A program made the position numbers and the translations under genes. Of a stretch of 64,000 nucleotides of DNA, positions 8,564 to 44,876 are shown in pieces. Source of the stretch: a virus; the IMG/VR virus record IMGVR_UViG_3300032163_000002, positions 1 through 64,000 of that record; one strand, given 5' to 3'. The stretch's first letter is position 1; each line of letters begins with the position of its first letter. The notes under the pieces are model-generated. The model was not told the DNA's origin, ran no database searches, and saw only the letters and a list, made by a program, of their open reading frames with translations.

Positions 8564-8612
8564 GTTTTTGTACCTCTTCTATCTAGATAGTTGTTATCGA
8601 CTTTTTTTGTCG

Positions 8613-8855: not shown

Positions 8856-9278
8856 TTAGTTTTTGTATTCGTTATCACATACGATATCTGTGCTATCACA
8901 TGCCGGACAATTCATCTTGGTTTTACAATGAGCCCCGCAGTTATTGCAGATGAATGGCGTCGCCGAACCTCTAAAATGACTGCGAAATTCTATGTGTGCT
9001 TTTGACATGGGCTCACCTGTGTCCTTGTAATATTCTGTTTCCCCGAGCAACGCCTCAACGATCTTGTTCGCGCGTACTCTACAAACTTCTTGATGGTCAT
9101 CATTCATGGCTGCCGCAACCCTTTCAGCATCCTCTTTGCTCAAATTACCTTTAATCAAAGCAGAATAATGCTGTTCAGCTTGATAAGTGGAAGCATAAAA
9201 CTTAGGAGTTTCTCCATGAAGTGCCTTAAAGACTCCCCATGTGTACCCTTCCCCTTTCTCAAAAAAATACTGTTTCAT
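8856..9278 (-). CDS. Two-domain tagged protein
   Basis: N-domain paralogous to 26437..26658; internal NKIVEALLGE; C-terminal CxxC...CxxC ribbon. Confidence 0.75.
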   Translation of the reverse strand: MKQYFFEKGEGYTWGVFKALHGETPKFYASTYQAEQHYSALIKGNLSKEDAERVAAAMNDDHQEVCRVRANKIVEALLGETEYYKDTGEPMSKAHIEFRSHFRGSATPFICNNCGAHCKTKMNCPACDSTDIVCDNEYKN

Positions 9279-10663
9279 GCTTTCGTCTCGTCAGGCTGGT
9301 CCATCGGATATCCAGCATTAGGTTTCTTTTCAAGCGTGTCCTTCTCGTCATCTTTTTCGTCATCATCATCGAGTTCCTGCTTTGGAGTCCGGAGATTCTT
9401 CGACGTGACCAACGTAGCGAGTAGATGATCAGCTTTAGCGAGCAAATTAACGACCTCGGCAATTTCGTCGTAAAGCTCCTCAGAATCTGCTGGGCTATTC
9501 GACGAAGCAATTCCTTCAATGGTCCCGATCAAATGCGGGATGTCATCTTTATAATGTGAAAGCCGATCAAGAAGCGATTGGTCAATTTCTTCTGTCAATG
9601 GCTTAGAAGCAGAATGCTTATTTTCCAGTTTTGACCTCTTCAGATCAATACTCGTGAAAGCCATTGTAGGAGTAGAATCATTCGGTGAAGGTGAAACAGC
9701 AAAAATTACAGGAGTTACGGCATGACATCCATGACAAAAAAGATCACCTTCCATTCCCCGTTTCTTTAATGTCATGATTGTTCCACCACACTTCGGACAT
9801 TCTGCACCATAAGAATCCGCTTTGTCAGTACTCCATTCAACGCCCTCATTCAATAATTGATTAACAATTTTTCGTACAGATTCCTTATTCCACACAATCT
9901 TAACCGGTATGCGTTCATCCGGCTTTGGCCTATTCTGCTGCCGAATCTTATTAAAGTCAATCTTCTGACCCGTACCTTCACATGACGGGCAATTATCCCG
10001 CTCAATACCGGGCTTGCAGGAACACCGCTCTCCGGTCTTTGGCTGATACCCTACTTCGTAAAACAGCTTACGGCTGCTCCGGTTCACAGCTTCGCTTTTT
10101 GTTCGACCAAACCCTCCGCAAGACGAGCACCCTGCACCCTTACACTGCGGGCATAGCCCCTTGAAGCCCATCGGAACGGTGGCAATATCTCCGCTCGTCG
10201 TGTCTTCGGTGCAATCCTTGAATTTCTTGTCCATGAAATCTTCAGCAGATTCCTTGTTAAAAGTGTCATCCCAAGTAGGAGAGTCATTTCCTGCCTTATA
10301 TTCCCGCTCCTTACCACCAATACCGGGGCGATGCAACCTGTCTAACGCAGCTTTCCGCCTCGCTGCACCGTCTTCGGCAGATTCTTCTTTTTCATCATCA
10401 CCCATTAAAGTCATACAAGTCTGACAAAGATCACTACCAGCTTTACGAGGGCTCTCCCCACAAGCGCTACAAAGAGGAGCTTCACCAGTCGGTGTACCTT
10501 CATCATCATCAGGCCCGAATTCGCCCTCCATCAAAGATTTCGTAATGCAAGGGTTTCTCACAAGCGTAGATTTTCGATTAAAAAAATTCTCAACCGGGCG
10601 CTCTTCTTCAGCGACTCTACCGGGCAAATGACGTAGGACATCTGACATTTTCAGTCTCCCCAT
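9275..10663 (-). CDS. Acidic, Cys-rich multi-module polyprotein (putative head cargo)
   Basis: Several CxxC mini-domains separated by Glu sites incl. ESVRKIVNQLLNE; probable start at 10648. Confidence 0.7.
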   Translation of the reverse strand: MGRLKMSDVLRHLPGRVAEEERPVENFFNRKSTLVRNPCITKSLMEGEFGPDDDEGTPTGEAPLCSACGESPRKAGSDLCQTCMTLMGDDEKEESAEDGAARRKAALDRLHRPGIGGKEREYKAGNDSPTWDDTFNKESAEDFMDKKFKDCTEDTTSGDIATVPMGFKGLCPQCKGAGCSSCGGFGRTKSEAVNRSSRKLFYEVGYQPKTGERCSCKPGIERDNCPSCEGTGQKIDFNKIRQQNRPKPDERIPVKIVWNKESVRKIVNQLLNEGVEWSTDKADSYGAECPKCGGTIMTLKKRGMEGDLFCHGCHAVTPVIFAVSPSPNDSTPTMAFTSIDLKRSKLENKHSASKPLTEEIDQSLLDRLSHYKDDIPHLIGTIEGIASSNSPADSEELYDEIAEVVNLLAKADHLLATLVTSKNLRTPKQELDDDDEKDDEKDTLEKKPNAGYPMDQPDETKA

Positions 10664-10671
10664 TTAGATAG

Positions 10672-11610
10672 TTACTCTAGAAGACTATTTATAATTCTCT
10701 TAACAGATTCATTCTCTCCAGCAACCTTCTTCTTAAGCTTTATCCATCTGTCAACTGCGGCTCTTTTCTTTTGATCGGGAGTTGCATATTTCTGAAGATT
10801 AGCATCAACAGTGGAAGTACCAGATATTTCTTTATGACCTTTAATTCCAGACCCCGGACCACCTTCTACCAGATATCCTACGATCCGACTGACAGCTTCC
10901 GGAACTCCCCCAAGACTTCTATCTACACGCCCACCACGAGAACACGCACCACAGATGAACGTGTTCTTTTCCAAGCAGGGAGAAGCTCCGTGGGGAGGGT
11001 CCGTCGGCCTTCCAACACTCCGAGCAGGGCACAGCGCGCCTTCCTTGGCCCACCGAAGGCAGTCAGGATGCCCACAGAGCGGCTCAGCATCTTCTCTGAT
11101 GGACTCGTTCTTCTTACGGAGTGTTTCAATAGCGGCTGATCGTTCCTCGCGGGACATATCAGCGTACTTACCTCCGCCAACATAAGCGTCATAGGCATCT
11201 TTTTGGTCCTTCGGACTCCAGTCTTCTGTCCCGGCAATATGCCCCTTATCTTCTTCACAAATGGATTCATCCTTTCCAGCCGTGTCGATGTCATAAAAGG
11301 GTGCCCATTCCTTGACAGCCACACTATTTCGTCTTCCAGCACGCAGGTCTTCCTTGACAGCGTCTTCGACATAACGCTGACCATCACCTGTTAACGGGTT
11401 TTCTAGAAATTTATTGCAAGAATCACAATGCTGAGGAGAATCTGCTTCGCCTCCACCATCCGAATACGGCCCCTTCGGAAAATCGTCAGAATCATAAGTA
11501 TTTTCGTCATTCGGATCATCGGGAGCTTTTCCAGCACGGGTTAGTTCTTTTTTGACCTTTTCTCCACAAGGGCCACACAGAAGCGCGGCCTGATACATAT
11601 AAGCGTCCAT
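10672..11610 (-). CDS. Multi-module polyprotein (putative head cargo)
   Basis: EAVSRIVGYLVE, C-terminal ESVKRIINSLLE, KxESIxE linkers, GGPGSG..GH motif. Confidence 0.7.
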   Translation of the reverse strand: MDAYMYQAALLCGPCGEKVKKELTRAGKAPDDPNDENTYDSDDFPKGPYSDGGGEADSPQHCDSCNKFLENPLTGDGQRYVEDAVKEDLRAGRRNSVAVKEWAPFYDIDTAGKDESICEEDKGHIAGTEDWSPKDQKDAYDAYVGGGKYADMSREERSAAIETLRKKNESIREDAEPLCGHPDCLRWAKEGALCPARSVGRPTDPPHGASPCLEKNTFICGACSRGGRVDRSLGGVPEAVSRIVGYLVEGGPGSGIKGHKEISGTSTVDANLQKYATPDQKKRAAVDRWIKLKKKVAGENESVKRIINSLLE

Positions 11611-11613
11611 CTG

Positions 11614-12084
11614 TTATTCTCCTTCGTTCGGATCGACGCCAACCGTCAGCGCCCCTTTACAGAAAGGACAAGCATCCTGTTCTTCATCATCCAGACGCCC
11701 ATCCGAATCCTTGTGGCCCCGCTCGTGTCCTTCAATAAACAAGTTGTAAAGATCAGCCTTCACGTAATCGAATTCACGTAGAAGTCTGTTCACAATATGC
11801 GGAACTTTTCCCTCATCACGAGAAGACCCTTGAGACTGATCTTCAATACCGTGATAGATTTCTGCGTAATATTGTATCAACGCTGTAATTGCTGCGTCGT
11901 TTTTGTGGTATTCTGCTATCGCTTGCTGGTAACTCTCAGGTTTTAATTGATAATCACGACCATGCGGAGAAACTTCCGACATAAGTTTTTTGGCTTCTTG
12001 AAGCACCTCATAAACATCTCGCACGTTATTTAGCAATGAACTACGAGATGTGCCATTCAAATTAACAGTAGGTATGGTTGCCAT
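11614..12084 (-). CDS. Tagged two-domain protein
   Basis: PTVNLNGTS...PHGRDY domain then HIVNRLLRE. Confidence 0.7.
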   Translation of the reverse strand: MATIPTVNLNGTSRSSLLNNVRDVYEVLQEAKKLMSEVSPHGRDYQLKPESYQQAIAEYHKNDAAITALIQYYAEIYHGIEDQSQGSSRDEGKVPHIVNRLLREFDYVKADLYNLFIEGHERGHKDSDGRLDDEEQDACPFCKGALTVGVDPNEGE

Positions 12085-12098
12085 TACTACACCTTCTC

Positions 12099-12233
12099 TT
12101 AGATAGTCGTTTCAAGAAGACGAAAAACAATACGAAGATCATCAGGGAGCTGATCTGGAACAGAAAACGCCCCACGAAGCGTATTAAATTTACCCGCAAT
12201 AGGTGATTTTTTCTGCCAGTCTGAAAGAGTCAT
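12099..12233 (-). CDS. 44-aa peptide ending in tag-like motif
   Basis: Manual translation MTLSDWQKKSPIAGKFNTLRGAFSVPDQLPDDLRIVFRLLETTI; exactly fills gap between genes. Confidence 0.5.
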   Translation of the reverse strand: MTLSDWQKKSPIAGKFNTLRGAFSVPDQLPDDLRIVFRLLETTI

Positions 12234-12238
12234 GAGTT

Positions 12239-12907
12239 TCAGCCCTCCTCTATGATTTTTTCAAACGCCGTTGCATCAAAACCACGCGATTCGTCGTACC
12301 AAACAACATCTACGCGCTCGATAACCTTCCGCACAGTGCGCACATCGACAATAGGAAGAGGCAACCAAGCTTCTAATTCAAATGTGATGGTCATACGAAT
12401 TTCACGGTCCGATTCCATATCTGGCTCAAGTTCAGTAAGATCCTGTACACCCTTTTCAAAAAGGGCAACACGCTTTTTCCCCCATCCCTCCCCAAGATCA
12501 ACCGTCAAATACCGGCGCCTGCGAGGAAATTTCTGAAGCGTCAAAGCCGTCAGAATATTCGCATCGTCCCTGAATTTTGCCCAAATATCAAGCTGGTATC
12601 CAATATCGTAAGCCATAGGGTGTTGAGATTGTTTGACAAAATTCAGATCATCAGACCACGCCAATTTTCTGTGAACAACCGGATTATACCGCTCCTCGGA
12701 TCGAATCCAATTCAATCGAGTTACAACCATCGCTGGCAAACGTACAGTTTGATCCCCGCGAAAAGGCACCTCAGATTTGTTCTCTGGAAACATTTCTGAT
12801 TGTTTACCATATTCCCTGCGGGGCGTAGCAAAGCCAATCGGCACGAAGTCCTTTTCCAACGTGAGCCGAAGAAAATTAAAGACGGCAAAATCATATTTTC
12901 GAAGCAC
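12239..12907 (-). CDS. Tail terminator / sheath stabiliser (gp15-like)
   Basis: LPAMVVTR...P.AYDIGYQLDIWAK...D...L..Q...F pattern and position. Confidence 0.65.
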   Translation of the reverse strand: MLRKYDFAVFNFLRLTLEKDFVPIGFATPRREYGKQSEMFPENKSEVPFRGDQTVRLPAMVVTRLNWIRSEERYNPVVHRKLAWSDDLNFVKQSQHPMAYDIGYQLDIWAKFRDDANILTALTLQKFPRRRRYLTVDLGEGWGKKRVALFEKGVQDLTELEPDMESDREIRMTITFELEAWLPLPIVDVRTVRKVIERVDVVWYDESRGFDATAFEKIIEEG

Positions 12908-12910
12908 AGA

Positions 12911-13465
12911 TTACTCGCCTGATTTCGCAGCCCTTAATGCCCGATTCGCTGCTCCAACAGGAGACGTTCCACTGTCATACCAGTCCCGCAAAGGAACATC
13001 TGGTAAATCGTGAATAGACATCCCCCCACGCTTCCATACAGCGTCATCCACCTGCTTCAGCCATTCCTCAAATGACAACTTTTGAGCTTCAGCCAGAAGT
13101 CGAGACACGATACGTTCAGTAGCTTCTTTTTTCTGCCAATCAACCGGAACAGGCATCCGTTGACCCGGAAGCTTCAAACCGGGGCAATCACATTTCGGTA
13201 AAGCACGACAAGAATCACCTATTCCTGTTGACCCATCCCAATCATTCTGTCCATGTATTACCGCAGCGTGACCACAATTAAGACACTTAAGGATACCTTC
13301 TGCCTCGTCCACATCTTCCCTTTCCTTTTTCAAAATACCAGTACCTTTATCTGCCTGATTGAATTCCTTTCCCACAGACTGAGGAATTCCCATCTTCTTT
13401 GCAAACGAAGCAGAATGGGCAACACCGGCCATTGTTCTAGCTTGCTTTTTTGAGACTGAAGGCAT
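12911..13465 (-). CDS. Three-module tagged protein
   Basis: MPSVSKKQ..MAGVAH..FAKKMGIPQSVGKEF basic module; CxxCGH Zn module; EATERIVSRLLAE; C-terminal DLPDV..RDWYDSG module. Confidence 0.7.
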   Translation of the reverse strand: MPSVSKKQARTMAGVAHSASFAKKMGIPQSVGKEFNQADKGTGILKKEREDVDEAEGILKCLNCGHAAVIHGQNDWDGSTGIGDSCRALPKCDCPGLKLPGQRMPVPVDWQKKEATERIVSRLLAEAQKLSFEEWLKQVDDAVWKRGGMSIHDLPDVPLRDWYDSGTSPVGAANRALRAAKSGE

Positions 13466-13474
13466 GACCTACTC

Positions 13475-13912
13475 CTACTTATCCCCTTCGTAACGAGCAA
13501 AAATATTACCAGTGTGAGGATCACTCAAAACTGCGCGAATATGCCCTGTGGTCCACACCGTAGCGAGTTTTTCCTGCACAAATTTCTCAAGAGTATCCTC
13601 ATTGGCAGTACCATAATTTGACCACGGCTCTGAACCGCGATTTCCACTTGAAGTACGAAATTCCACTACAAAACGCTGCGTCTGTGCTGCGGCATCTTCC
13701 AACAAACTATTTACAATATCTCGCACACGCGCTTCATTAGTTCCAGCCCATACGTCCTTACCGATTTTTGTAGCTCGTTTATCTCCATCCTTCGGCTCAA
13801 ACCCACCCTTGCTCCGCCAATCCCAATAACCCTTCAAAAGTTCAAGAGTTGTATTCGGGTCTTCAGCGTTAAGAGCAGTTTCCGCGCGAGCCAAAGCAAT
13901 TTCGGGGTCCAT
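13475..13912 (-). CDS. Two-module tagged protein
   Basis: Start re-called at MDPEIALA (GAGGAG RBS); internal EARVRDIVNSLLE. Confidence 0.7.
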   Translation of the reverse strand: MDPEIALARAETALNAEDPNTTLELLKGYWDWRSKGGFEPKDGDKRATKIGKDVWAGTNEARVRDIVNSLLEDAAAQTQRFVVEFRTSSGNRGSEPWSNYGTANEDTLEKFVQEKLATVWTTGHIRAVLSDPHTGNIFARYEGDK

Positions 13913-13934
13913 ATGTATCTCCTCACTAGGATAG

Positions 13935-14549
13935 TTAACCACGAGCTTGCTTCAAACGTTTTCGAATATCTTCCCGAATATCTTTGACAATTTCACGCCG
14001 AAGCGTTTTCATTTCAATTTTCCAACGCTTAATCGCAGGTCTCCAATGTGGACGTGGAGGCATTCCACCTTTTAACGTAACAGTACCTTTATACTTTCCA
14101 CCTCTCGGGCCACGTATGACAACTTTACGCTGTCGAGTACCATATTCAAGCCACTTAGCAAGCAAAGCATAAGAAAGTGTACGAATTTTGAAACCCTGCT
14201 TCGTCTTGATGACATCATAGCGCGTCTTCCGAGTCAACCCGATTATTGCCCCGAATTTGGTTTTTTCTACCCCAATAGCCCGGATATATTTCGTCGTGGC
14301 AATCAAAATACGCGGGTCCAACCCCTTACGAATTTTCCACCGCAAATATGCCGGAGAAAGCGGCATGTGGTGGAGACGTTGACTGTAAATGTCATTACGA
14401 AGCCCCTGCGCCATTTTCTTCGCAGAATCGTAAACTCGCCCCCTCACTCGAAGAACGAGCGGCCCCGGATTACCCGGTGTCCCAAATGCCTGCGCCACAA
14501 TATACGTAGGCCGAACTTTGGGCGCGATGACCTGCGCGCAGATTCTCAA
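13935..14549 (-). CDS. Virion morphogenesis / tail-completion protein (HK97 gp10-like)
   Basis: PLSPAY...K...LIAT; WLEYGT...MPPRPHWRP; very basic. Confidence 0.7.
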   Translation of the reverse strand: MRICAQVIAPKVRPTYIVAQAFGTPGNPGPLVLRVRGRVYDSAKKMAQGLRNDIYSQRLHHMPLSPAYLRWKIRKGLDPRILIATTKYIRAIGVEKTKFGAIIGLTRKTRYDVIKTKQGFKIRTLSYALLAKWLEYGTRQRKVVIRGPRGGKYKGTVTLKGGMPPRPHWRPAIKRWKIEMKTLRREIVKDIREDIRKRLKQARG

Positions 14550-14551
14550 AG

Positions 14552-15205
14552 CTAGTTATTGCCACCGTGGATTTTTCCGTCATCCCCTACATAAAGATCG
14601 TAAGTTCCAAAAGATTTACAAGCATCAGAAAGCTTCTTGAATACCGGGTCATCACCCTCATCCCAAAAACCCGCGCCATGACCATTCCGGTTCAACCAGA
14701 AATCGTGTCCCGCGCGGTCATCTTTGAGCCCTGATTCTGCGAGATCCTTTTCATTTTTCTGTACGAACGAATTGCAATCATTTTTCATTTCAGAACGTGT
14801 AGCCGAATCAAGATCCTCCGGTCCATAATTTTTGTCGAGCGGTTCACCCCCGCTGGGTGTAGATTCATCCGTAGATGACCAAAGCGCGCATTCAATATAA
14901 GCATTAACGAACCGGTTGCTCGCTGACTCCGTCAGCTTCTCCCCTGCCGGACACCCTGACTCCCCATATTGCATACCAAAAATAGCCAAAAAACCGGGAC
15001 TCAACTGGTCGTATAAATCATCTGCTTTCTGCTTGTCTTCACTTGACATGGAAGCAGGATATGTAGGAATAGCTTTTCTCTTTGCCCACTTTACACCAAG
15101 CTTCTTCATAGAAGCATAAAGCTCTAAATCTTTATTATTCGGCTTGGTCTCAGCTTCTTTCACTTCCTCAAATAACTGCGTAAAATATTTTCCATGTAAA
15201 CTCAT
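14552..15205 (-). CDS. Multi-module protein (putative head cargo)
   Basis: KLTE|S then AYIECALWSS...GHDFWLNRNGHGAGFWD domain. Confidence 0.65.
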   Translation of the reverse strand: MSLHGKYFTQLFEEVKEAETKPNNKDLELYASMKKLGVKWAKRKAIPTYPASMSSEDKQKADDLYDQLSPGFLAIFGMQYGESGCPAGEKLTESASNRFVNAYIECALWSSTDESTPSGGEPLDKNYGPEDLDSATRSEMKNDCNSFVQKNEKDLAESGLKDDRAGHDFWLNRNGHGAGFWDEGDDPVFKKLSDACKSFGTYDLYVGDDGKIHGGNN

Positions 15206-15705
15206 TCTCCACCCCTTCTAAGCTGTGATACCGGATAAATGGCATCTTCCTGCACTGTGCGCGGCTTCGTCGTAATTGACTCAGGACGCACACGAATAAG
15301 TTCTACTTCAAAAGTCATCGGAATTTGACTATTAAAAAAATAGTCACGAGGGTTATCCTGCACGATCTTGTAGCATTCCTGCTCGACGACGATATGATCG
15401 CCAATGCTGGGGCGGACAACCCCCGCTTCTGCAAAAGAATCATAGAAGAAAAATGCTTTGAAGTTCCGCTTTTCATCAAGCCCGAATTTTGTCAGCTTCG
15501 CTTTCCACTCAGGAAGCTCAGGAAAATATGCAGCTATCTGATATGTTGGTATGTTCGTTGGCTTCATGTTTCCAAAAGTCTTGTCAAGATTCTCTCCATA
15601 AAGTTGATCGCCTGTCTGCTTATCATAAATATACACATCCACAATTTTCATGAACCGAGCATAAAGTTCCCTATTTATGCGTTTCCAATACGTCAAATCA
15701 CTCAC
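15202..15705 (-). CDS. Head-closure / neck protein (gp14-like)
   Basis: DQLYGE...LTKFGLD...PSIGDHI...YKI pattern; position after gp13. Confidence 0.65.
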   Translation of the reverse strand: MSDLTYWKRINRELYARFMKIVDVYIYDKQTGDQLYGENLDKTFGNMKPTNIPTYQIAAYFPELPEWKAKLTKFGLDEKRNFKAFFFYDSFAEAGVVRPSIGDHIVVEQECYKIVQDNPRDYFFNSQIPMTFEVELIRVRPESITTKPRTVQEDAIYPVSQLRRGGE

Positions 15706-15872
15706 GAATCTACCTCCAATAAAGCCCGCATAGAAAAAACGGGTGCCTGTTCCGTGTCTTCCACAAGAGCAGGCAGAGGTAGCACAGAAAAAATCAAAGC
15801 AATCTCTTTCTCCTTCACCTCAACAGGTAAAGGCAGAAAAGAGAAAACCAAAACATTCGCATCAGAATTCAT
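15702..15872 (-). CDS. 56-aa protein with three internal repeats
   Basis: Manual translation with LVFSFLPLP / LIFSVLPLP / PVFSMRAL; coupled to both neighbours. Confidence 0.55.
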   Translation of the reverse strand: MNSDANVLVFSFLPLPVEVKEKEIALIFSVLPLPALVEDTEQAPVFSMRALLEVDS

Positions 15873-16468
15873 TATTTCCTTAAAATAGCTCTAACTCGTT
15901 CAACAAGAGTAGCAAAATTACGTTCCTCTTTTCGTTCCTGTTTTTCAATATGTGCTCGTAATGCTTCAAGCCCCTCAATACGTGTTTGTAATGCTTCAAC
16001 TCCTTCAAGAGGGACAGGATTAGCAGCACTCGTTATCGTTGGTTTTGGTTCAATTCTTATTTGAATAACTGGAGAATTTGTATCAAGTTGTAAAATAAGC
16101 GGTTTACACGTAGTCCGAGGCGGATCACAATCAAACGTTATGGTGTAGCTTCGTGTCGGAGGAAACGGCGTCGGCGTGACAGAGGGGACAGCCGGGGGCG
16201 GGGACGGTGTGAGAGACGTGGGGGCCGTAGGCGTTACGGTGGGAGTCAAGGAAGGCGTAGGTGTCGGCGTAGGAGTGGTAGCTGCCGTCGCCGTAGGCGG
16301 TAGGGTCGGGGTCGGCGTCCGGTAAGGCGTGGGCGTTTGCGTGGGGATCTTTACTGGCCCTCCTCGCAGAAACGCCTTCTTTTGTGGCACGTCTACACAC
16401 GAAATCATCATCCCGAAAATCAGACATAATCCTCCAAAAAAAGTCGCAACCTTTTTCTCCCACCGCAT
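15872..16468 (-). CDS. Putative lipoprotein with Pro/Thr linker and C-terminal coiled coil
   Basis: MRWEKK + hydrophobic stretch + ISC; long TP-rich tract. Confidence 0.55.
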   Translation of the reverse strand: MRWEKKVATFFGGLCLIFGMMISCVDVPQKKAFLRGGPVKIPTQTPTPYRTPTPTLPPTATAATTPTPTPTPSLTPTVTPTAPTSLTPSPPPAVPSVTPTPFPPTRSYTITFDCDPPRTTCKPLILQLDTNSPVIQIRIEPKPTITSAANPVPLEGVEALQTRIEGLEALRAHIEKQERKEERNFATLVERVRAILRK

Positions 16469-16476
16469 AATGCTCT

Positions 16477-17088: not shown

Positions 17089-17155
17089 AATCTCTCCTTT
17101 TCTTTGGTTGATTGATGGATTAAGAAATATAGGACAATCTCAAGTTAGTCGCATC

Positions 17156-17965: not shown

Positions 17966-17967
17966 TT

Positions 17968-18651
17968 TCAGTCTTTCGCCAGCGGCAGAAGCTTGTTAAG
18001 CATTTGCTGTCTAGAAAGCCCTGTAGTAGGAAGTTTAAGGCGTTCAAATACCTGCACAAGATCCTTATATTTCATAGCCTGAAGATGCCTCTTGGAAGGT
18101 AATGTTGGAGCCCCTACCGGAATACCGTGATGAGATTCCGCTGCCTTAACCTCGGCAAGGAACTTCGAGGAAGCTTCCGCCGCCGGGAGCGGACTACCAT
18201 CTGCCGTAGCCGGGCCAAAGTCCATGACCTCTTCAAAGACAGGAAGGGTTTTCGAAGGGGCAAAGATAGGGGCAGTGGGCCGGACAACGCCATAGGCTAC
18301 AGCCTCCATTTCGGTAATCGGGCGAAGAAGTTCTGTGATTTTGACCATTTCCTCAACGGGTTTCTGAACAACCTCTCTTGATGAAAATGAAAATACTTGT
18401 GGCACCGTCTTTCCGGACGTGTAAAGAATTGGTCCCGAATAATCAGCCCCAGCTTGCATCAAAATACGATTTTCAATGTATTGCTCGAACCCCGGTCCCC
18501 GAACAGCAGCACGACAGTTTCCTGCGAGGTTAATAAAATTCCCTTCCGGCGTGCGAATGAGCACAGCATATTGATTCATGTTGACCAGAATCGGCCCCGT
18601 TACAGCGGAATTAGCTTTCTCCACCTCTTCCAGAAGCTCGTTCATCTTCAT
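17968..18651 (-). CDS. Hypothetical protein with C-terminal small helical (Rho-N/SAP-like) segment
   Basis: LQAMKYKDL...LKL...GLSRQQML; late motif upstream. Confidence 0.55.
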   Translation of the reverse strand: MKMNELLEEVEKANSAVTGPILVNMNQYAVLIRTPEGNFINLAGNCRAAVRGPGFEQYIENRILMQAGADYSGPILYTSGKTVPQVFSFSSREVVQKPVEEMVKITELLRPITEMEAVAYGVVRPTAPIFAPSKTLPVFEEVMDFGPATADGSPLPAAEASSKFLAEVKAAESHHGIPVGAPTLPSKRHLQAMKYKDLVQVFERLKLPTTGLSRQQMLNKLLPLAKD

Positions 18652-19175
18652 ACGTTCTCTTCCTTATGAGATAGTTCATTTTCTTCTAAGGTAAGACAAA
18701 AGCAATTAACAATGCTGGCTAAAGTGAGAACGGAATATGTAATCATAGCCAAAGCTGCACCCCGCCAACCAGCTATGAACATTAAAAACGAAATAATTGC
18801 CAGTGTCATTACATCCAGTAGACAAACGATCTTCCGTGTAAGAAAATTCCCATGCCAAATCGTGCAAAATCCTGCGCTACCAACAAGAAAAAACCAGAAT
18901 CCCCAAGCCCATTCAGGAGCAAAGACAAGCAGATTTCTATGCGCAGGATTAACGCTCAAAATAGCTGGTGTACCGGGAATGATGAGCACCACACCCCATA
19001 GAAAAATAATGAGCGAAATAAAAAATATCCCAACTTCACTTCGCGCATAAAGAAGCGTTTTTATGAAACGCTCCAAATTTTGCCAGAAAAAGCGATTAAA
19101 GTACCGCACTTGATTTTTCTGCTTCAAAGACGAGACGAAAATAATTGACAATGGAAACAGCACAAAAAACAGCAT
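18648..19175 (-). CDS. Four-TM membrane protein (paralog of 19096..19550)
   Basis: LLYARSE..FLWG...NP...WG..F.LVGS.G...GN...RKIV shared with neighbour. Confidence 0.7.
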   Translation of the reverse strand: MLFFVLFPLSIIFVSSLKQKNQVRYFNRFFWQNLERFIKTLLYARSEVGIFFISLIIFLWGVVLIIPGTPAILSVNPAHRNLLVFAPEWAWGFWFFLVGSAGFCTIWHGNFLTRKIVCLLDVMTLAIISFLMFIAGWRGAALAMITYSVLTLASIVNCFCLTLEENELSHKEENV

Positions 19176-19550: not shown

Positions 19551-19583
19551 GTATACCCTCCATACAGATAGTTCCCCAAAACG

Positions 19584-19603
19584 AAAAGCCGCCCGAAAGC
19601 GGC
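19584..19603 (-). terminator. Terminator after HNH gene
   Basis: GCCGC-tttcgg-GCGGC-TTTT. Confidence 0.65.
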
Positions 19604-19627
19604 ACTTAAGACCAGAATGAAAAAGGG

Positions 19628-20248
19628 TTAAACAGGTAGAGAAGAACCCTTCTTGCTATTGCAGAGCTGACAAGAAGGAATAATATTTCCTATGTCGTTC
19701 GACCCGCCCTTTGAAAGTGGAACGATATGATCTCTAGTCGCGGTCTTATCTGTTAAATGACGCCGACAATACGCACACCGGTATCCTGTAACCGCAAGAA
19801 GTTGCCACCACTCTTTTGCAGTGTGAAAACCAACCGCACCTTTAAGTCTAGCAATGCGATTTTGTTGGATCTGATTTACCTTATCGCGGTTATTCTTACG
19901 CCAAGCCACAATAACCTTTTTACGACGTTCTGGATCTGCTGCGTATGCCGCTTTAGCTGCCTGTTTCGTAATCTCTGCGTATTTTTTATTTGCATAGCGT
20001 TTCTTGTTCATCGCGCTAATCTTTTCTGGATGAGCAGCCCGATACTCGCGCATGCGCTGGTTGTATTCCTCCCGATGCTCCTCACGCCAACGCTGCATCG
20101 ACTCACGGTTGATTTCACGAGAACGCTCTCGATTATCCACACGCCAGCGCTGCATCGCTTCTTTGTTTTTGATCCGGAGCACATCCTGATTCTTCTCTCG
20201 CCACGCCTTATACGCAGCAGCTTTTTTCTTTGGGTCTTTGTAAGGCAT
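19628..20248 (-). CDS. HNH homing endonuclease
   Basis: CAYC...TRDHIVPLSKGGSNDIGNIIPSCQLCNSKK; basic N-terminal repeats; start re-called at MPYKDP. Confidence 0.9.
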   Translation of the reverse strand: MPYKDPKKKAAAYKAWREKNQDVLRIKNKEAMQRWRVDNRERSREINRESMQRWREEHREEYNQRMREYRAAHPEKISAMNKKRYANKKYAEITKQAAKAAYAADPERRKKVIVAWRKNNRDKVNQIQQNRIARLKGAVGFHTAKEWWQLLAVTGYRCAYCRRHLTDKTATRDHIVPLSKGGSNDIGNIIPSCQLCNSKKGSSLPV

Positions 20249-20266
20249 ACGTGGCCTCCTACTGGA

Positions 20267-20295
20267 AACATAGACCCGTGTGCCCTTCATGTCAA
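20267..20295 (-). promoter_or_regulatory. sigma70 promoter of HNH gene
   Basis: TTGACA-N17-TATGTT. Confidence 0.65.
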
Positions 20296-20330
20296 GTAAT
20301 GAGTCATAACGCCAAGAAGCCCGTAAAAGG

Positions 20331-20354
20331 AAAAGCCCCCCGAGTGGGGGGCTT
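20331..20354 (-). terminator. Terminator after major capsid gene
   Basis: AAGCCCCCC-actc-GGGGGGCTTTT. Confidence 0.85.
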
Positions 20355-20380
20355 CTCTTATGCTAAGTTGTTAGTGCTGC

Positions 20381-21829
20381 TTAGGTAAGGCGAATCTTAC
20401 CGTAAAACAATCCGTTGACGGGTTTTTTAGCGTAGTGGGTCAGAAGTCCCTTCCGCCCCATGAAGTCATCGAGGTAAATCGTCGGTGTAGCGTAGAAAGG
20501 AATCCACGGGGCATACACGTACCCCGCATCAAGGAAAGAGTCACCCTTGTACCCAACAATGGCAGTATCCATGTCAAGGTAGGGGTCCATGAAGACCTTG
20601 AACATATTCTGAATCGTTCCAATATACTGAACGCCCGAGCCCTGTATCGTACCAGCAGACTGGAACTGCGCACCTTCCTGCCCCATGATGATGTTGGCAA
20701 CAGTGATACCGCAGAGAATCCAGTTTGCCCGATGCCGACGAGTAGCATGGAAAATCTTGTTCGATGCTTCAATCAGTGAGTAAATGAAAGACTGACGATG
20801 AAGATAAAGCGCAACGTTCGAAGGCGCAGACTTGGTAAACGTTGTCTCCGGAATTACCTGTGACGTGTTATTCGCGTTTGCCATCATCAAAAGATCGTTG
20901 ATGATCTCACGATCAACCTCGATCCGCATTTCGTTCGCCATATCCGTGACGATCTCAGTCTCAGCTTCCATGCCACGAACAGACTTCAACTGAGCCGCTG
21001 CTTCAATGCTCCACCGAGCGCGCAGCTTACGAGGCCGCGAAATAACCGGGATGCTCGTAAGCATGATATCGACCTGCGGAACAAGATCGCCAGCGCCTTC
21101 CGAGTTGTAATCGTACGTTCCCGTAATCGGCTGTGCATCCGGTCCCTTACCCGTAGCAAAAGTGAGAAGGATATAACCAGTCGAATAATTGACGCTGTTA
21201 CCAGAACTTTCGAGTTCACCAGCCGCACCAATGACTCCACCGACACCATCGTCCGTAAGTGTTTTGACAGCATGATCGGATGCCGTGTAAGAAATCACAA
21301 GAGAACCGGGACGGATAATAGTAAAAGCTGCCTTCGTACCGGGAGTTGTACCGAGAGGTGTAAGAGCAGCAGAACCCGCGCCAACACCAAGCGTCTCACC
21401 CTGCACGATCTCAGACGAATAATTGAAACCAGAAGCATCGTTCCAGCCCGTCCGAGCAGAGAAGAGTGAATCGCCCGCCTTCACTGCGCCCTTACTCGTG
21501 CCAAAGCGCGAGTCACGGAAGAAAATCAGGCTGGTAGGAGACTGCATCGGTTGGACCGATACAAGCTCCGTGCTAACAAGGTTCGGGTAAACGCCTTTAA
21601 TCATCGGGAAAATGAATTTCTCAAATGACCCGATATTAGCAACGCGCGTTTCCTCGTCAAGTCCCTCAAGCCATTTTCGCTGATTTTCCATGAGGAACGC
21701 TACGAGGGGTTTCTTATCTTCCGGAAGGCCCGCGACGAATTTCCTCCACGGACCTCGTGCAAGAGCCGCCGCCGTCTGATTCTGGCTTGAAAGAGCCAGA
21801 GCCGCTTCGTTGAGTTCAGCCATTGTCAT
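20381..21829 (-). CDS. Major capsid protein (T4 gp23 family)
   Basis: VSVQPMQSPTSLIFF, RKLRARWSIEAAAQL, EVDREII, GYKG...DAGYVYAPWIP. Confidence 0.95.
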   Translation of the reverse strand: MTMAELNEAALALSSQNQTAAALARGPWRKFVAGLPEDKKPLVAFLMENQRKWLEGLDEETRVANIGSFEKFIFPMIKGVYPNLVSTELVSVQPMQSPTSLIFFRDSRFGTSKGAVKAGDSLFSARTGWNDASGFNYSSEIVQGETLGVGAGSAALTPLGTTPGTKAAFTIIRPGSLVISYTASDHAVKTLTDDGVGGVIGAAGELESSGNSVNYSTGYILLTFATGKGPDAQPITGTYDYNSEGAGDLVPQVDIMLTSIPVISRPRKLRARWSIEAAAQLKSVRGMEAETEIVTDMANEMRIEVDREIINDLLMMANANNTSQVIPETTFTKSAPSNVALYLHRQSFIYSLIEASNKIFHATRRHRANWILCGITVANIIMGQEGAQFQSAGTIQGSGVQYIGTIQNMFKVFMDPYLDMDTAIVGYKGDSFLDAGYVYAPWIPFYATPTIYLDDFMGRKGLLTHYAKKPVNGLFYGKIRLT

Positions 21830-21863
21830 TCACTCCTTTTCTCTGGAATTTTTTTCAAGCCAA

Positions 21864-23864
21864 TTACTTAGCCGAAGGGACATTAAGAATAGATTTAGGC
21901 GCCATGCGCTTGTAAACCGCTTCAGAAAGTGCAAGCTGATGATCCAAGATTGTTTCGCCACTCTTCTTAGCCGGACCGCGTGAGCCAAAATCGCTATCTT
22001 CGGTGAGCGAACGAAGCGCACCGGGGGAAGCTACACGAACACCCGGAAGGGCACCATTGGCAAAATCAACCGCAGAAGATGCTGATCTATCCGCAGCTTC
22101 AGTAACAGCCCGCTTGGAGACAGCCACTTTATATTTCCGAATAAGAGACTCGATGACAGACGGAATAAGCCCCGACGGAATCCGCTGACCACGAATCTTG
22201 AAGGACACAACGCCACGCCGAATATTCCGAACCGCAGATTCGTACCGTTTGACAACTTTCGTCATGGTGGCGAGAGCATGCCCGGCAACGGCCTCCGTGA
22301 CTTTGCGCTGGTAACGGAGTTTCTTATTCTCAGCTACGAGCCTCCGAAGCATCTTGGCGAGCTTTGCCTCAAGCGGAGGAAGATCCTTCTCATCTTCAGG
22401 CTCTTCGTCAGCGTCAGCAAGATCCTCGGGCGGATCAGGAACCTCAAATTCTCCACCCTCTTCACGGAAAATAGATTCAAACGAAGGTGTGCCACCACCC
22501 GGTGATTTCATGAAATCCTTTTCCTCTTCTCCATCTTCAGGCTTCGGAATTTCAGATTCCGGAGGAGCGGCTTCGAGCGTCTCATCCTCATCCTCGTCGT
22601 CATTCTCACCACCTTTCTTGAAAGGAGGAGCCTTCTTCCCGCCAAAATCAGCGTCTTCCTTGAATCCCCGCAGGTAGCTCCGCGTGCTCCGAAGAAGGCG
22701 TGACTCACACTTCTTCACGGAATCTTTGACGGTCTTTTCCTTCGTTGCCTCGGGGTCGTCGTCAGCGTTAACCTCGGCATCCATCTCCCGAAGCAGCTTT
22801 TCGAGGCGCTTCGAGGAAGCTGCTCCGGCTTCCTGCATTTCCGCCATAGTCGTCTCCTCCTTTTTAGTTACTTTTTCGAGAGCGCCCGCCCCTTTTACGA
22901 CGGGGGGAACTTCATCCTTGGGAAGCTGTGTATTATCTTTGAATCCGGAAGCGCCAAGTTTCTTCAAAAGCTCAGGTGGCATATTGTTCGATGCACCTTC
23001 ACCAGTCTCAATAATAGAAGTGAAAAAGAGCTTTTTCATAGCCTGAAGCTCAGGAAGCAAACCAAAAACAAGAGGCTTCACATCCGGAGCTTCCTCTGCC
23101 AAAACATTTAGTCTGTAAATAAGATCCGTCACGGCATTTTCCGTGATAGACCGAACTTCCGAAGTTGCCTTCCGCACGTCAACACGCAGCATATCCTGTG
23201 CAGAGCGTTCCAGAAGTCTGTAAGTATCGAGGGAATTCGCCATGTATTTCTCCTCCTTTTTTCCATTTGCATGCTCTTGCACAGGAGTCGGGTAAGCGCC
23301 ATGTGTCGAAGGATTGTGGACAAAATCGAAAGCTTCAAGCACGAAATCATCTTGTACGATATCGCGCCCACCTTCTTTAAGCACTTCGCCAGAACCCCGT
23401 GAGGAAGCTCCAACCTTAGTTCGAGCACGGAAAAGAGCTTCCGCTTCCCTACCATAAATCGTTGGCAAAATTTCAAATTCGGCCCATATTTCACCTGCCT
23501 CGTTCATGTTTAATGCAGTGACAATATGAGACGTACGCGAAAGCCGGGTTTGTCCATCGTCCGGATGATCCAATTCCCCATAAAATCCACGCTCTGTAAT
23601 CTTGGTCTGAGCGGGAGAGTCAGGGCGGATCTGTTTTTCCCATACCTTACGAGGATATATTCGGTTATTCTCGTTAACAGTATCTGAACGCTGAACAAGA
23701 CCCCGAACACGAAGCGGCTTGCCTTCTAACCCTGTACCTTCTACGATTTCGTATTTAAAATTCTCGATGACTTCGCAGAGAGGCTTCTTCTTTCCGCGAG
23801 TACTCCATGCCCCCATGAACGGGGGTGGCTTGATAGACGGCGAAGTAAGAAGATCCATAGGCAT
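21864..23864 (-). CDS. Prohead protease (gp21 family) fused to acidic scaffold-like region
   Basis: NENNRIYP, GELDHP, GASSRGSG, FDFVHNPSTHGA; then about 460 aa of E/K-rich helical tail. Confidence 0.9.
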   Translation of the reverse strand: MPMDLLTSPSIKPPPFMGAWSTRGKKKPLCEVIENFKYEIVEGTGLEGKPLRVRGLVQRSDTVNENNRIYPRKVWEKQIRPDSPAQTKITERGFYGELDHPDDGQTRLSRTSHIVTALNMNEAGEIWAEFEILPTIYGREAEALFRARTKVGASSRGSGEVLKEGGRDIVQDDFVLEAFDFVHNPSTHGAYPTPVQEHANGKKEEKYMANSLDTYRLLERSAQDMLRVDVRKATSEVRSITENAVTDLIYRLNVLAEEAPDVKPLVFGLLPELQAMKKLFFTSIIETGEGASNNMPPELLKKLGASGFKDNTQLPKDEVPPVVKGAGALEKVTKKEETTMAEMQEAGAASSKRLEKLLREMDAEVNADDDPEATKEKTVKDSVKKCESRLLRSTRSYLRGFKEDADFGGKKAPPFKKGGENDDEDEDETLEAAPPESEIPKPEDGEEEKDFMKSPGGGTPSFESIFREEGGEFEVPDPPEDLADADEEPEDEKDLPPLEAKLAKMLRRLVAENKKLRYQRKVTEAVAGHALATMTKVVKRYESAVRNIRRGVVSFKIRGQRIPSGLIPSVIESLIRKYKVAVSKRAVTEAADRSASSAVDFANGALPGVRVASPGALRSLTEDSDFGSRGPAKKSGETILDHQLALSEAVYKRMAPKSILNVPSAK

Positions 23865-24343
23865 TACCTGCTGCCAAGCGCTTCTTTAAGTAGTGACATA
23901 TCAGGAAGAGGCATCTCCCCATAAATAATTCGATCTACGTCATTAGGATGCGCAGGCCAACACTTTCCAGTTCGTGTGCTGAACAAAATATTCTTGAAAT
24001 TATAGACGTAGTTCAAAAATCTTTGCAGATCCAATTCATTGTCAAATCCGAACTTCTGGATCATCGGGGAGTGAAGAAGAGGCAACCCTCGCCATTTCAT
24101 GTCATTTCCCGGCATGGCGGAACGAACATTAAGAAGAGTGGCATCCTCATCCTCAAAAAAAACAAGAAGAAGGCCCCCAAGATCATCTGGCGTAAACCCC
24201 GGAGGCGGGGGGTCAACGGTCAGAGGGATGTCATACTGCGCGGCATTTTCAGCAATCGCCCGCTCAGAGCGATCACGCCAGAATTTTCCAGACCCGGAAA
24301 TCCGGTTCTGGAGCATGCCGAAGAGATGAGCAAAAGCCCCCAT
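23864..24343 (-). CDS. Hypothetical head-module protein
   Basis: Coupled to protease start. Confidence 0.6.
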   Translation of the reverse strand: MGAFAHLFGMLQNRISGSGKFWRDRSERAIAENAAQYDIPLTVDPPPPGFTPDDLGGLLLVFFEDEDATLLNVRSAMPGNDMKWRGLPLLHSPMIQKFGFDNELDLQRFLNYVYNFKNILFSTRTGKCWPAHPNDVDRIIYGEMPLPDMSLLKEALGSR

Positions 24344-24362
24344 GTCACTACTCTTTCGAAAC

Positions 24363-24704
24363 TTAGCCGTGAACGAGCGCTTTCAGATTTGCCAAAACTG
24401 TTTTTGCCCCTGCAAGTGCCGCATCTACGTCAGTCTTATAAGCAGCGCGGTTCGCTTCCAACCAATCTTCTGCCAGTATGTACGTACTCGCCGTAGCCCC
24501 GTCGCCATTGACAGAGTCAATCGCGGCAAGAATCATCTGCGTGAGCATGTAAGCCTGTTGAAGATTTCGAGCGACAGGTCCCGGTGAGTCGAGAGTGTCA
24601 AGGTTTCGAGTAAGAACCTGAATGTCGATTGCGGGCTGAGCCATCTTGAAGTCCTCCTTCTTTAGTCCTGTTAAAGTCTCGACTACCTCGCGGTAGTCCT
24701 TCAT
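24363..24704 (-). CDS. Small helical head-module protein
   Basis: MKDYREVVETL; late-motif variant just upstream. Confidence 0.6.
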   Translation of the reverse strand: MKDYREVVETLTGLKKEDFKMAQPAIDIQVLTRNLDTLDSPGPVARNLQQAYMLTQMILAAIDSVNGDGATASTYILAEDWLEANRAAYKTDVDAALAGAKTVLANLKALVHG

Positions 24705-24820
24705 GAAGGTAGTTACCCCTTACTTTCAAAATTTTTCGTATAACCTCAACATTCAGGTAATTTTTACCCTCTTCAGAAGAACAACTTCCTTAAAAAAGAG
24801 AATTGTTATAACTGTAAGAT

Positions 24821-25057
24821 TCAAAGTTGAACGTTTGACGGAACAGGAATGACCCCACTATGCTCGCCAGATGCCCTCATGAACACCACGTAACGACCAG
24901 CAGAGCCCCCTTTTGCGACAACCAAGTAATCCCACACAGCTCCAGCTATTTTCTTACGTAAATCTTCTACCCGAGAAATCGTCAATCCACCGGGAAGCAT
25001 GTCCCCTGCCCTCGGAAGAGTCAACAGACGTTCAACAATAACCTCAGCCGCGTTCAT
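24821..25057 (-). CDS. Small protein with tag-like N-terminus
   Basis: Start re-called at MNAAEVIVERLL. Confidence 0.55.
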   Translation of the reverse strand: MNAAEVIVERLLTLPRAGDMLPGGLTISRVEDLRKKIAGAVWDYLVVAKGGSAGRYVVFMRASGEHSGVIPVPSNVQL

Positions 25058-25464
25058 TACTTTCCTAACCAGTACCCCGAAAGCGCACCAAGCGTTCCGT
25101 AACTCCACTTTAGAGTTTCTTCCGGATACCGCTTGGACAAAATCACCCATAGAGAAGCGAGAAGCATGACTCCAGAAAATACCAAAACTGGTGTATGCTT
25201 CGAGTCATCCACAAAAGTACTGGAAACAGGTGCAGGAATAGGAGTTGGAGCAACCGAATATCTGATGCCACCTTTTGCTTCAGGTTTTATTTTCTCAAGA
25301 TTGATTGCTGCTGAAAATGGAGGCAGCAACGTAGGTGCTACATGATAACTATATTTTTCAAACAGCGCTGTACTAACACGAGGCTTTCGAAGCAAAACTT
25401 TTTCAGTAAACAACCCCAAGAGTGTCACCATAAAAAATATGAGCGCCAAATAACTTTTCTTCAT
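25057..25464 (-). CDS. Membrane protein
   Basis: N-terminal TM plus C-terminal TM pair ending WSYGTLGALSGYWL. Confidence 0.6.
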   Translation of the reverse strand: MKKSYLALIFFMVTLLGLFTEKVLLRKPRVSTALFEKYSYHVAPTLLPPFSAAINLEKIKPEAKGGIRYSVAPTPIPAPVSSTFVDDSKHTPVLVFSGVMLLASLWVILSKRYPEETLKWSYGTLGALSGYWLGK

Positions 25465-26351
25465 ACTGACGCCACTGCAAATGCACTCCAGTTGATCGAG
25501 CCATCATTCGGAAGTTTTCCTTTACGAGAATATCCAACCGTTTCACATTCAAGTGTAATATAAAGACCTCCTGCGCAAGAAATCTCAAAATGTCCATCTG
25601 CATCCGTAATCGCCGCAACAAAAGCTCTCGAAAATCCAACAGACTGCTTCATTTGAGGTGTATCCTTCAAACGCATTTTGACTTCGACACCCTGCGCAGC
25701 AACACCATTCGGATACAACACCCATCCATAAATTGTCACTTGTAAAATCGTGGGTACAACCGGCACAACAGCATCAGTTCCAGAAAAATTAAATGTCACT
25801 GCCGGACCACTGACAACAGTGAAAGTAGCAGGAAGATTAGGAAATATTGCAAACGCTTTGAAGAAATACGCCTGATAATTACCAACCGGAAGCGACATGA
25901 CAACTCTTCCAGAAACATTCGTGAGAAGCCCCGGAATGACAGCCTGCCCGGTAGAAGGATTCCAAATTGAAACCGTAACTCCTGAAATCGGAAGCGCGGA
26001 TAAAGCATCATAAAGACGAAGCGTAACAGGAATATTTCCAAGCACCGGAGCTAACGTTGCTTCAAGCGCTTTCACATCCGTCAAATCCGGCCATTCCTGA
26101 CGAAGATATACCACTGACGGATCAGAAGCACTCAGCACAACAAGCTCAACCGGCAGGTTATTAGGAGGATTCAAAAGCCCGGTAAGCCTGTACCACCCCA
26201 CCCCCAACTGCGTGCTCAAAGATTCAAGCGCGAGACTCGGGGAAGAAATTGGAGTAATCGGTGCAACGTCACGAGCATTGTAGAGGAGTGTAAAATCAGA
26301 AAGTTGAAGTCCAGCAGATCCTGCGTAAAAAGCTTGACTGCAAACCGACAT
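25461..26351 (-). CDS. Virion structural protein with carboxypeptidase-regulatory-like beta-sandwich domains
   Basis: PISGVTVSI...TNVSG...LPVGNY; TDADGHF motifs; late motif upstream. Confidence 0.6.
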   Translation of the reverse strand: MSVCSQAFYAGSAGLQLSDFTLLYNARDVAPITPISSPSLALESLSTQLGVGWYRLTGLLNPPNNLPVELVVLSASDPSVVYLRQEWPDLTDVKALEATLAPVLGNIPVTLRLYDALSALPISGVTVSIWNPSTGQAVIPGLLTNVSGRVVMSLPVGNYQAYFFKAFAIFPNLPATFTVVSGPAVTFNFSGTDAVVPVVPTILQVTIYGWVLYPNGVAAQGVEVKMRLKDTPQMKQSVGFSRAFVAAITDADGHFEISCAGGLYITLECETVGYSRKGKLPNDGSINWSAFAVASV

Positions 26352-26384
26352 GTCTGCACCTCACAAGATAGTCCTCTTCAAAAG

Positions 26385-26407
26385 AAAAAATCCTCTTGCG
26401 AGGATTT
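26385..26407 (-). terminator. Terminator separating early block from late block
   Basis: AAATCCTC-gcaa-GAGGATTTTTT. Confidence 0.7.
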
Positions 26408-26436
26408 CTCCAGTTTCTTTTTTACTTGATTGTGCT

Positions 26437-26658
26437 TTAACTCGTCCCGCGCATGGACTCTGCCAATTTTTCAGCTTCTTCCCTACTTAGATTCCCTTGA
26501 ACCATTGTAGGATAAGTCATTTCATGAAAATATTTCTCTATGTAAAAATTGGTTCCGTCTCTAAAAACACCCCATACATAAAAAGCAAGCGTTTCAGGCA
26601 ATGCAGGTGCGCTCGGTTTTCCATAACCAGAAGGATCTTTCTCGACTGGAAGTCTCAT
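26437..26658 (-). CDS. Small protein, untagged paralog of N-domain of 8856..9278
   Basis: YVWGVF...FY...GNLSREEAEKLAESM. Confidence 0.7.
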   Translation of the reverse strand: MRLPVEKDPSGYGKPSAPALPETLAFYVWGVFRDGTNFYIEKYFHEMTYPTMVQGNLSREEAEKLAESMRGTS

Positions 26659-42767: not shown

Positions 42768-42768
42768 T

Positions 42769-43829: not shown

Positions 43830-43832
43830 TTT

Positions 43833-44826: not shown

Positions 44827-44876
44827 GGCTTCCACCTCATTTTTACTTTGCGAACCGCAAAGTTATTAGCGCCACA

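Follow-up and report, generated by a model that had tools for sequence, protein, structure and literature searches.

A small domain in a tagged and an untagged copy points to a probable capsid-cargo system in an uncultured phage with T4-type head genes

The DNA analysed here (the window) is the first 64 kb of IMG/VR record IMGVR_UViG_3300032163_000002, a viral record of 141,027 bp that has direct terminal repeats and belongs to an uncultured phage; nearly all genes of the window lie on the minus strand. Two of them encode the same domain of approximately 45 residues, termed the WGVF domain here. P0001, the 140-residue product of 8856–9278, is a fusion in which the domain is followed by a short peptide tag and a Cys-rich tail, and P0002, the 73-residue product of 26437–26658, is a stand-alone copy without the tag. 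The tag recurs on unrelated proteins encoded mostly among structural genes, and is best read as a probable capsid-targeting and cleavage signal, given the T4-type head genes of this phage and the way the peptide ends. On balance, it appears probable that P0001 is loaded into the head, cleaved and injected with the DNA, and that P0002 is the early form of the same protein; the targeting, cleavage, injection, timing and host-directed role in this scheme are deduced from sequence and from the T4 analogy.

The genes of P0001 and P0002 are both on the minus strand, and the plus-strand translations of both are nonsense. Residues 12–58 of P0001 (9105–9245) align with residues 27–69 of P0002 with 19 identities over 47 positions (40%; E value of 3e-11, pairwise BLASTP). 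The pair has an E value of 2.2e-8 in an all-against-all comparison of the 1061 open reading frames (ORFs) of at least 40 amino acids across the whole 141-kb genome, and is one of only 13 ORF pairs with E ≤ 1e-3, several of the others being overlapping or out-of-frame ORFs. The Smith–Waterman score is 99, compared with 25 ± 4.5 for shuffled sequences (z of 16.6), and none of 5000 shuffles reaches it. An exhaustive search of 1.84 billion representative proteins with a two-sequence profile returned 11 further real homologues, and the motif W-G-V-F, two Tyr and one Ala are invariant across the family. A sequence-only reading of the window had proposed that the two genes hold the same domain, and the alignment on which it relied proves significant: judged by sequence, P0001 and P0002 are true paralogues.

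In an AlphaFold2 model computed with the family alignment, residues 12–60 of P0001 form three β-strands and then a helix (predicted local distance difference test, pLDDT, of 88–97), so that the domain comprises the strands and the start of the helix. The predicted helix (residues 48–84) continues from the domain through the tag NKIVEALLGE (residues 71–80; 9039–9068, minus strand). After the tag come six Cys in CxxC-type spacing; this zinc-ribbon-like tail (residues 111–134; 8877–8948) has low model confidence and no family match. P0002 ends four residues past the domain and contains no tag detectable by pattern or by matrix (see below). The WGVF domain has no match in Pfam or PHROGs, and its scores in a protein atlas do not exceed 0.80. 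Foldseek against the PDB returned nothing significant for the model (best E value of 3, with weak MbtH-like rows), and the best hit of a wide VIA-align comparison (Z-score of 4.1) was due to the long helix, leaving no convincing solved relative.

The family is rare by these sequence searches, since word-index protein searches with P0001 and P0002 returned the queries alone and tblastn of both against 50,697 phage records gave no match. Scanning viral contigs for patterns from P0001 and from a family alignment likewise gave none, one metagenome scan for the domain yielded a single 1.2-kb contig, and the domain was not found in L003–L005, three distant relatives by capsid protein (40–44% identity). 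Its members take mixed forms: untagged, with N-terminal leaders ending L-x-E, or C-tagged. In a maximum-likelihood tree of the 13 domains, eight of ten inner branches are open and P0001 is the longest branch of the main group, so the tree sets no direction of tag gain or loss for this domain. The untagged proteins P0002 (residues 7–13), P0003, P0007 and P0013 have in common an N-terminal D-P-S-G-Y-G motif, absent from every tagged or leader-bearing member, which may be a separate functional peptide. The possibility that P0001 arose as a fusion of a WGVF gene with a downstream Cys-rich gene, an arrangement suggested by L008 and L011, was discarded because its tail is not similar to those neighbours.

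The tag has the consensus V-x-[KR]-I-V-x-x-L-L-x-E and would form an amphipathic helix. It occurs at 13 sites in 12 proteins whose cargo domains match different families; five sites are N-terminal, six internal and two at the extreme C terminus. Five small minus-strand genes carry it at the N terminus (3377–3649, 3846–4211, 4208–4546, 4805–5398 and about 5388–5628), with cargo that includes phrog_5643, DUF7717, phrog_9437 and DUF7007. Five further minus-strand genes have internal or C-terminal tags (9275–10663, 10672–11610 with two tags, 11614–12084, 12911–13465 and 13475–13942), and a gp15-like gene is interleaved with them. The products of 9275–10663 and 10672–11610 are multi-module and Cys-rich, and showed no recognisable enzymatic domains in family profile scans; P0001, by comparison, has two small modules. 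The outlying member, 51820–52332 (minus strand), scores above the Pfam cut-off for the S-AdoMet lyase family, and its tag (51829–51852) starts just past the end of the profile, at the C terminus of the protein. Phage T3's early anti-restriction enzyme is a member of this lyase family.

A regular expression for the tag matched 17 times in the six frames of the 141 kb, with 12 matches in coding frames at 3.6–13.7 kb and one at 51.8 kb; in 204 non-overlapping ORFs (greedy choice) it matched 14 times, compared with 1.4 ± 1.2 in 1000 residue-shuffles. Because this expression was written after the tags had been seen, a position matrix was trained solely on 14 tags of the related contig L006 and applied to every ORF of the genome. 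It gave 11 matches scoring 12 bits or more, against none in reversed ORFs; all 11 are in minus-strand genes of late regions, and P0001 scores 22.9 bits with this matrix from another phage. Both tags of 10672–11610 were found by the regular expression alone. These two and 10 of the 11 matrix matches lie at 3.4–13.9 kb or adjoin head genes at 24.8 kb. In the late block, an internal Met in 24821–25150 precedes a tag variant without the final Glu (12.6 bits). Codon choice varies synonymously at the conserved Ile, Val, Leu and Glu, which indicates that selection acts on the peptide rather than on the DNA and rules out a DNA-level repeat; nor do the internal tags mark the starts of separate genes, as no start codon with a ribosome-binding site stands just before them.

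It could still be asked whether the domain similarity or the tag reflects chance, low complexity or repeated DNA, given that the domain is short (47 aligned residues) and that the first tag pattern was post hoc. The genome-wide E value of 2e-8, the failure of all 5000 shuffles, the eleven outside homologues, the independent matrix with its 11 matches against none and the synonymous codon variation refute this explanation, to which we give next to no credence. By these sequence criteria the tag is a real peptide-level element common to unrelated proteins. The claim that several unrelated domains share the tag therefore stands, as does the description of P0001 as a tagged fusion, located in the neck and sheath block; the GHDFWL...GFWD protein (14552–15205), also named as tagged in the sequence-only reading, has no tag by regular expression or matrix. 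No tag was recognisable in L003–L005.

The reading of the tag as a capsid signal draws on the head genes and on the resemblance of its ending to T4 propeptides. The phage encodes a gp23-family major capsid protein (20381–21829, minus strand; Pfam Gp23, E value of 7e-56) that is at most 35% identical to that of any deposited phage, marking it as a distant phage. It also encodes an S77 (T4 gp21-type) prohead protease (21864–23864, minus strand; Peptidase_S77, E value of 1e-10; phrog_207, E value of 1e-37), with a long C-terminal region of approximately 430 residues beyond the protease that looks scaffold-like. At the expected propeptide junction, L-D/N-E is conserved in the capsid proteins of the phage and three relatives. 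All 13 tags end [LIV]-x-E or L-L-E; 12 have L or I at that position, and the tag 10672a has L-V-E. In the T4 record, IPII and IPIII start with MKTYQEFIAE and gp24 with MAKINELLRE, whereas gp22, gp67, gp68 and gp21 have similar starts ending L-I-x-E or L-I-E, so that the T4 propeptides all end L/I-[LI]-x-E or L-I-E. The first ten residues of gp24 resemble the tag of 3846–4211, and the start of gp22 resembles those of 3377–3649 and 12911–13465. In T4, the first ten residues of IPIII suffice to target a protein into the prohead core, and residues 8 and 10 of the signal direct its cleavage (PMC9026906). The gp23-type capsid, the S77 protease, the L-[LI]-x-E ending and the L-D/N-E junction together suggest that the tag probably serves as a capsid-targeting and cleavage signal.

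The two copies of the WGVF domain differ in their transcriptional setting. A sigma-70-like promoter family has eight near-identical copies in the window (none expected), all on the minus strand and none below 30477. The copy nearest upstream of P0002 (30477–30505; TTGACT, 17-bp spacer, TATATT) heads a gene run that ends with an HNH endonuclease gene, a MazG-like gene and P0002. The HNH gene (27254–27775) is immediately upstream of the MazG-like gene, the two together occupying 26655–27775 on the minus strand, and the start of P0002 overlaps the MazG-like stop (ATGA). P0002 is the last gene before a terminator-like 12-bp hairpin with a U tract (26378–26411, minus strand), beyond which an AACTATC-type element, GACTATCT (26366–26373, minus strand), opens a block that runs into the head genes. 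The operon with its host-type promoters and the company of the MazG-like and HNH genes suggest that P0002 is probably expressed early or in the middle of infection, in line with the early character that the sequence-only reading had ascribed to the stand-alone copy.

The structural block contains none of the eight sigma-70-like promoters. The GACTATCT element occurs 13 times in the window (6 expected), 12 times on the minus strand and typically 12–25 nt ahead of late-gene starts, those of the sheath and tail-fibre genes among them. In the form [AG]ACTATC[TA] it is strand-specific, stands just ahead of ribosome-binding sites and is found at 2637–2644, 8585–8592, 10666–10673, 12101–12108, 18669–18676, 19566–19573, 26366–26373, 45954–45961, 52337–52344 and 63064–63071. 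In L006 the AACTATC core occurs five times (1158, 2489, 3807, 4056 and 12806), each time in front of an orthologous gene and on its coding strand, although the flanks have diverged. It may represent a late promoter or an RNA-processing site, and it differs from the T4 late promoter TATAAATA. P0001 sits in the neck and sheath block, its start overlapping (ATGA) the stop of the upstream tagged gene 9275–10663, an arrangement of translational coupling, and 9275–10663 itself lies behind an AACTATC-type element. These cis elements and neighbours fit a domain whose untagged form is early and whose tagged form is late.

The same distribution bears on whether the tag instead binds some common partner that has nothing to do with the virion (a chaperone, host protein or regulator, for instance), with the WGVF pair an ordinary duplication whose copies differ in regulation. 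Short helices are often common to small phage proteins, and the link of the tag to particles is itself drawn from sequence and analogy. Against this, 10 of the 11 matrix matches and both tags found by regular expression alone cluster in structural or head regions, L006 shows the same clustering in its structural module, with at least 14 tags in 13.8 kb, and even the outlying gene 51820–52332 is preceded by the AACTATC element of the late genes (AACTATCT, 52337–52344). We regard a non-virion partner as very unlikely.

Several observations weigh against a capsid signal of the T4 kind, or against the roles built upon it. T4-type propeptides occupy the N-terminal 10–20 residues, whereas the tag of P0001 lies at residues 71–80 of 140, and internal or C-terminal sites account for 8 of the 13 tags. 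The tagged genes are found among neck and tail genes rather than adjoining the head genes. The residue following the final Glu is not conserved, and cleavage may accordingly not happen at every site. The MazG-like assignment near P0002 is weak (E value of 7.5e-5), and the AACTATC element is so close to ribosome-binding sites that it is perhaps no promoter. Finally, because the WGVF domain lacks a family, fold or atlas match, the host-takeover role that the sequence-only reading had assigned to it is a guess.

The first of these points can be turned into a different explanation, in which the tag helix serves assembly of, or docking to, a structure other than the head interior, such as the neck, collar or tail, and P0001 would be a minor virion protein, external or associated with the tail, that is not injected. 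Tagged genes are interleaved with Ad2-like adaptor, Neck1-like, gp15-like and sheath genes, the tag helix has heptad-like hydrophobic spacing, and its internal and C-terminal placement is unlike that of the T4 signal. Such docking would however mean that the neck or tail carries about a dozen unrelated small domains, among them an S-AdoMet-lyase-like enzyme and a DUF7007 cargo that elsewhere is characteristic of conjugative plasmids, and the tag's ending, L-[LI]-x-E, fits the specificity of the head protease. In T4, too, the alt gene is surrounded by baseplate genes, yet its product Alt is carried in the head (PMC5512222). We consider neck or tail docking unlikely.

Comparison with relatives illustrates how tag and cargo combine. 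Contigs L006 and L007 come from one relative with the same gene order and a sheath protein 79% identical to that of the window. Its P0011 is the positional orthologue of P0001, both genes lying two before the sheath gene, and consists of the WGVF domain, the tag and eight C-terminal residues, the last eight being the regulatory region of the next gene read through. The orthologue of 11614–12084 stops at the tag, whereas the window copy runs approximately 50 residues further. The cargo of 3377–3649, which is N-tagged in the window, stands in L006 behind an extra domain of 110 residues with the tag between the two. In phage GAP31 it is a 75-residue stand-alone gene among small ORFs. An untagged WGVF homologue adjoins a homologue of the phage's own ResIII/SNF2 helicase, and an untagged homologue lies between RtcB and RNA ligase genes on a 174-kb phage contig. 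The contexts of the untagged homologues and the tagged orthologue of the late copy fit the division into early untagged and late tagged forms.

For DUF7007 the evidence is more extensive. Among the 120 closest homologues in 5.8 billion proteins, 118 lack the tag, the tagged two being those of the window and of L006, and the untagged proteins start at the domain or bear unrelated extensions. The domain is found on 422 plasmids, 270 of them conjugative, and on pOC167 an untagged copy is beside ParB-like, ArdC-like zincin and DUF736 genes. The expectation that cargo domains have tag-less homologues elsewhere is thus borne out. The companion claim, that domains gain the tag, holds in part: by sequence comparison the tag was clearly added to a pre-existing domain in DUF7007, such addition is likely for the S-AdoMet-lyase-like domain, and the tag-less relatives of the other cargo domains are consistent with addition but do not polarise it. 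The WGVF family, with its open tree and its mixture of untagged, N-leader and C-tagged forms, gives the claim no direction.

The same modularity could mean that the motif is a mere protease cut site or linker dividing multi-domain precursors, with no targeting role and any packaging due to other features. Internal tags do fall exactly at domain borders, the family profiles of 12911–13465 and 3377–3649 beginning right after the tag, and orthologues differ by whole modules on either side of it. A bare cut site, however, needs approximately three residues, whereas 10–12 are conserved here, including positions 5–9 before the Glu; the tags at the extreme C termini of 10672–11610 and 51820–52332 separate nothing; and the equivalent T4 peptide is sufficient for targeting (PMC9026906). 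A pure cut site or linker appears quite unlikely.

Under the capsid-signal reading, the following sequence of events can be proposed. The tag helix would dock the protein onto the prohead scaffolding core, as the T4 capsid-targeting sequence does, and the S77 prohead protease would then cut after its final Glu. In P0001 this cut would part the domain and tag (residues 1–80) from the Cys-rich tail (residues 81–140), and the two products, retained in the head, would pass into the next cell along with the DNA. P0001 would be made together with the neck and tail genes, whereas P0002, the plain form, would be co-translated at the end of its operon, probably early or in mid-infection. The same activity would thus be present at injection and again from early transcription. 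A broader statement can be ventured more tentatively, as one that is about as likely to fail as to hold, with a slight lean towards failing: that an uncultured clade of phages with T4-type heads uses a position-independent 12-residue helix as a transferable capsid ticket, on at least 12 proteins here and on at least 14 in 13.8 kb of the relative, including domains that elsewhere stand alone in early phage regions or on conjugative plasmids.

Other proteins of the window and its relatives bear peptides of related appearance. In 12911–13465, residues 1–43 match phrog_22033 and phrog_25121, whose members are annotated as virion structural proteins, and are followed by a Cys-rich stretch, the tag and a DUF5419-like domain. 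The N-terminal peptide of 17968–18651, in the late block, resembles the T4 gp24 propeptide. Several small proteins (42303–45319 and 51527–51823) start with a leader of a second type, M-K-[VI]-x-[ST]-x-L-x-x-x-L-I-E; the leader-bearing cluster at approximately 45.9 kb is, like 51820–52332, preceded by the AACTATC element. Within the leader-bearing cluster, 43050–43829 encodes a 259-residue protein with a papain-like Cys-protease signature. L008, L010 and L011 have leader variants of their own, for example ending K-L-T-E, and such leaders are also borne by the WGVF homologues P0004, P0005 and P0009 and by their neighbours. From these sequences, the leader consensus seems to be particular to the lineage, with [LI]-x-E as its ending in every case. 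In the true T4-like Aeromonas phage phiAS5, ORF0186 (L019, 2938–3318) is a DUF7717 homologue with an 11-residue M-K-T...E start that resembles the leader of T4 internal proteins, and DUF7717 proteins may be head cargo in classical T4-like phages too. The HNH gene upstream of the MazG-like gene has a paralogue at 38299–38781, the two being 47% identical over 151 amino acids.

If the tag is a packaging signal, sequence alone would mark the proteins that are delivered with the phage DNA, and these would be the likeliest to counter host defences before phage genes are transcribed. The full set of injected proteins would then be readable from sequence, and domains such as WGVF could be seen switching between early-expressed and pre-loaded forms. 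The T4 capsid-targeting principle would reach far beyond the T-even phages, would tolerate internal and C-terminal placement, a property useful for engineering protein delivery by phages, and would spread by tagging domains from a common phage and plasmid gene pool. The paralogue pair would be a second natural case, after Alt and ModA/ModB, of an activity that is both pre-loaded and expressed early. Its value is as one visible case of a larger, testable cargo system.

The closest known system is the capsid-targeting sequence found in the T-even internal proteins (Ip1/IPI, Ip2/IPII and Ip3/IPIII of T4, and the corresponding loci of other T-even phages), likewise a short peptide on unrelated small proteins. 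These are diverse anti-restriction proteins that have the leader alone in common (PMC3012670, PMC12373910) and are injected with the DNA (PMC3012670, PMC9026906, PMC12373910). Both systems combine a gp23-type capsid and a gp21-type protease with peptides ending [LI]-x-E. They differ in that the consensus here is longer than the T4 decapeptide MKTYQEFIAE, in the number of tagged proteins, in their setting among neck and tail genes, and in one defining T4 feature, N-terminal placement, which applies to only 5 of the 13 tags; the system here is known from sequence alone. The ending is almost the same as that of the N-terminal propeptides of T4 gp24, gp22, gp67, gp68 and gp21, but those are core and vertex proteins essential for assembly, whereas the motif here is on accessory domains.

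The WGVF pair itself is most like T4 Alt and its paralogues, one domain family that exists in a single genome both in a packaged form, made late and bearing a propeptide, and in early forms that are not packaged: Alt is injected, whereas ModA and ModB are not (PMC5512222). Alt is moreover cut at both ends, and its C-terminal processing parallels the processing proposed here (PMC9026906). P0001 and P0002 are likewise paralogues that differ in the tag, with their timing read from cis elements and neighbours alone; the WGVF domain, at approximately 45 residues, is however unrelated to Alt, ModA and ModB, which are ADP-ribosyltransferases of known function. A further likeness is to the polyvalent proteins (Iyer et al. 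2017) and the propeptide-bearing ejection proteins of phiKZ, 201phi2-1 and SPN3US, which are late, protease-processed and delivered with the DNA, and which combine unrelated conflict domains also found on conjugative elements (PMC5512222, PMC5694885). Those proteins are large, with 2–15 domains or propeptides of more than 100 residues and cleavage motifs of the form S/A/G-x-E, whereas most proteins here consist of a single small domain or two, linked through a defined tag of 12 residues. With Alt and ModA/ModB and the T-even internal proteins as direct precedents, the idea is not new in kind; what is new here is that the consensus differs and that the tag can stand inside a protein or at its C terminus.

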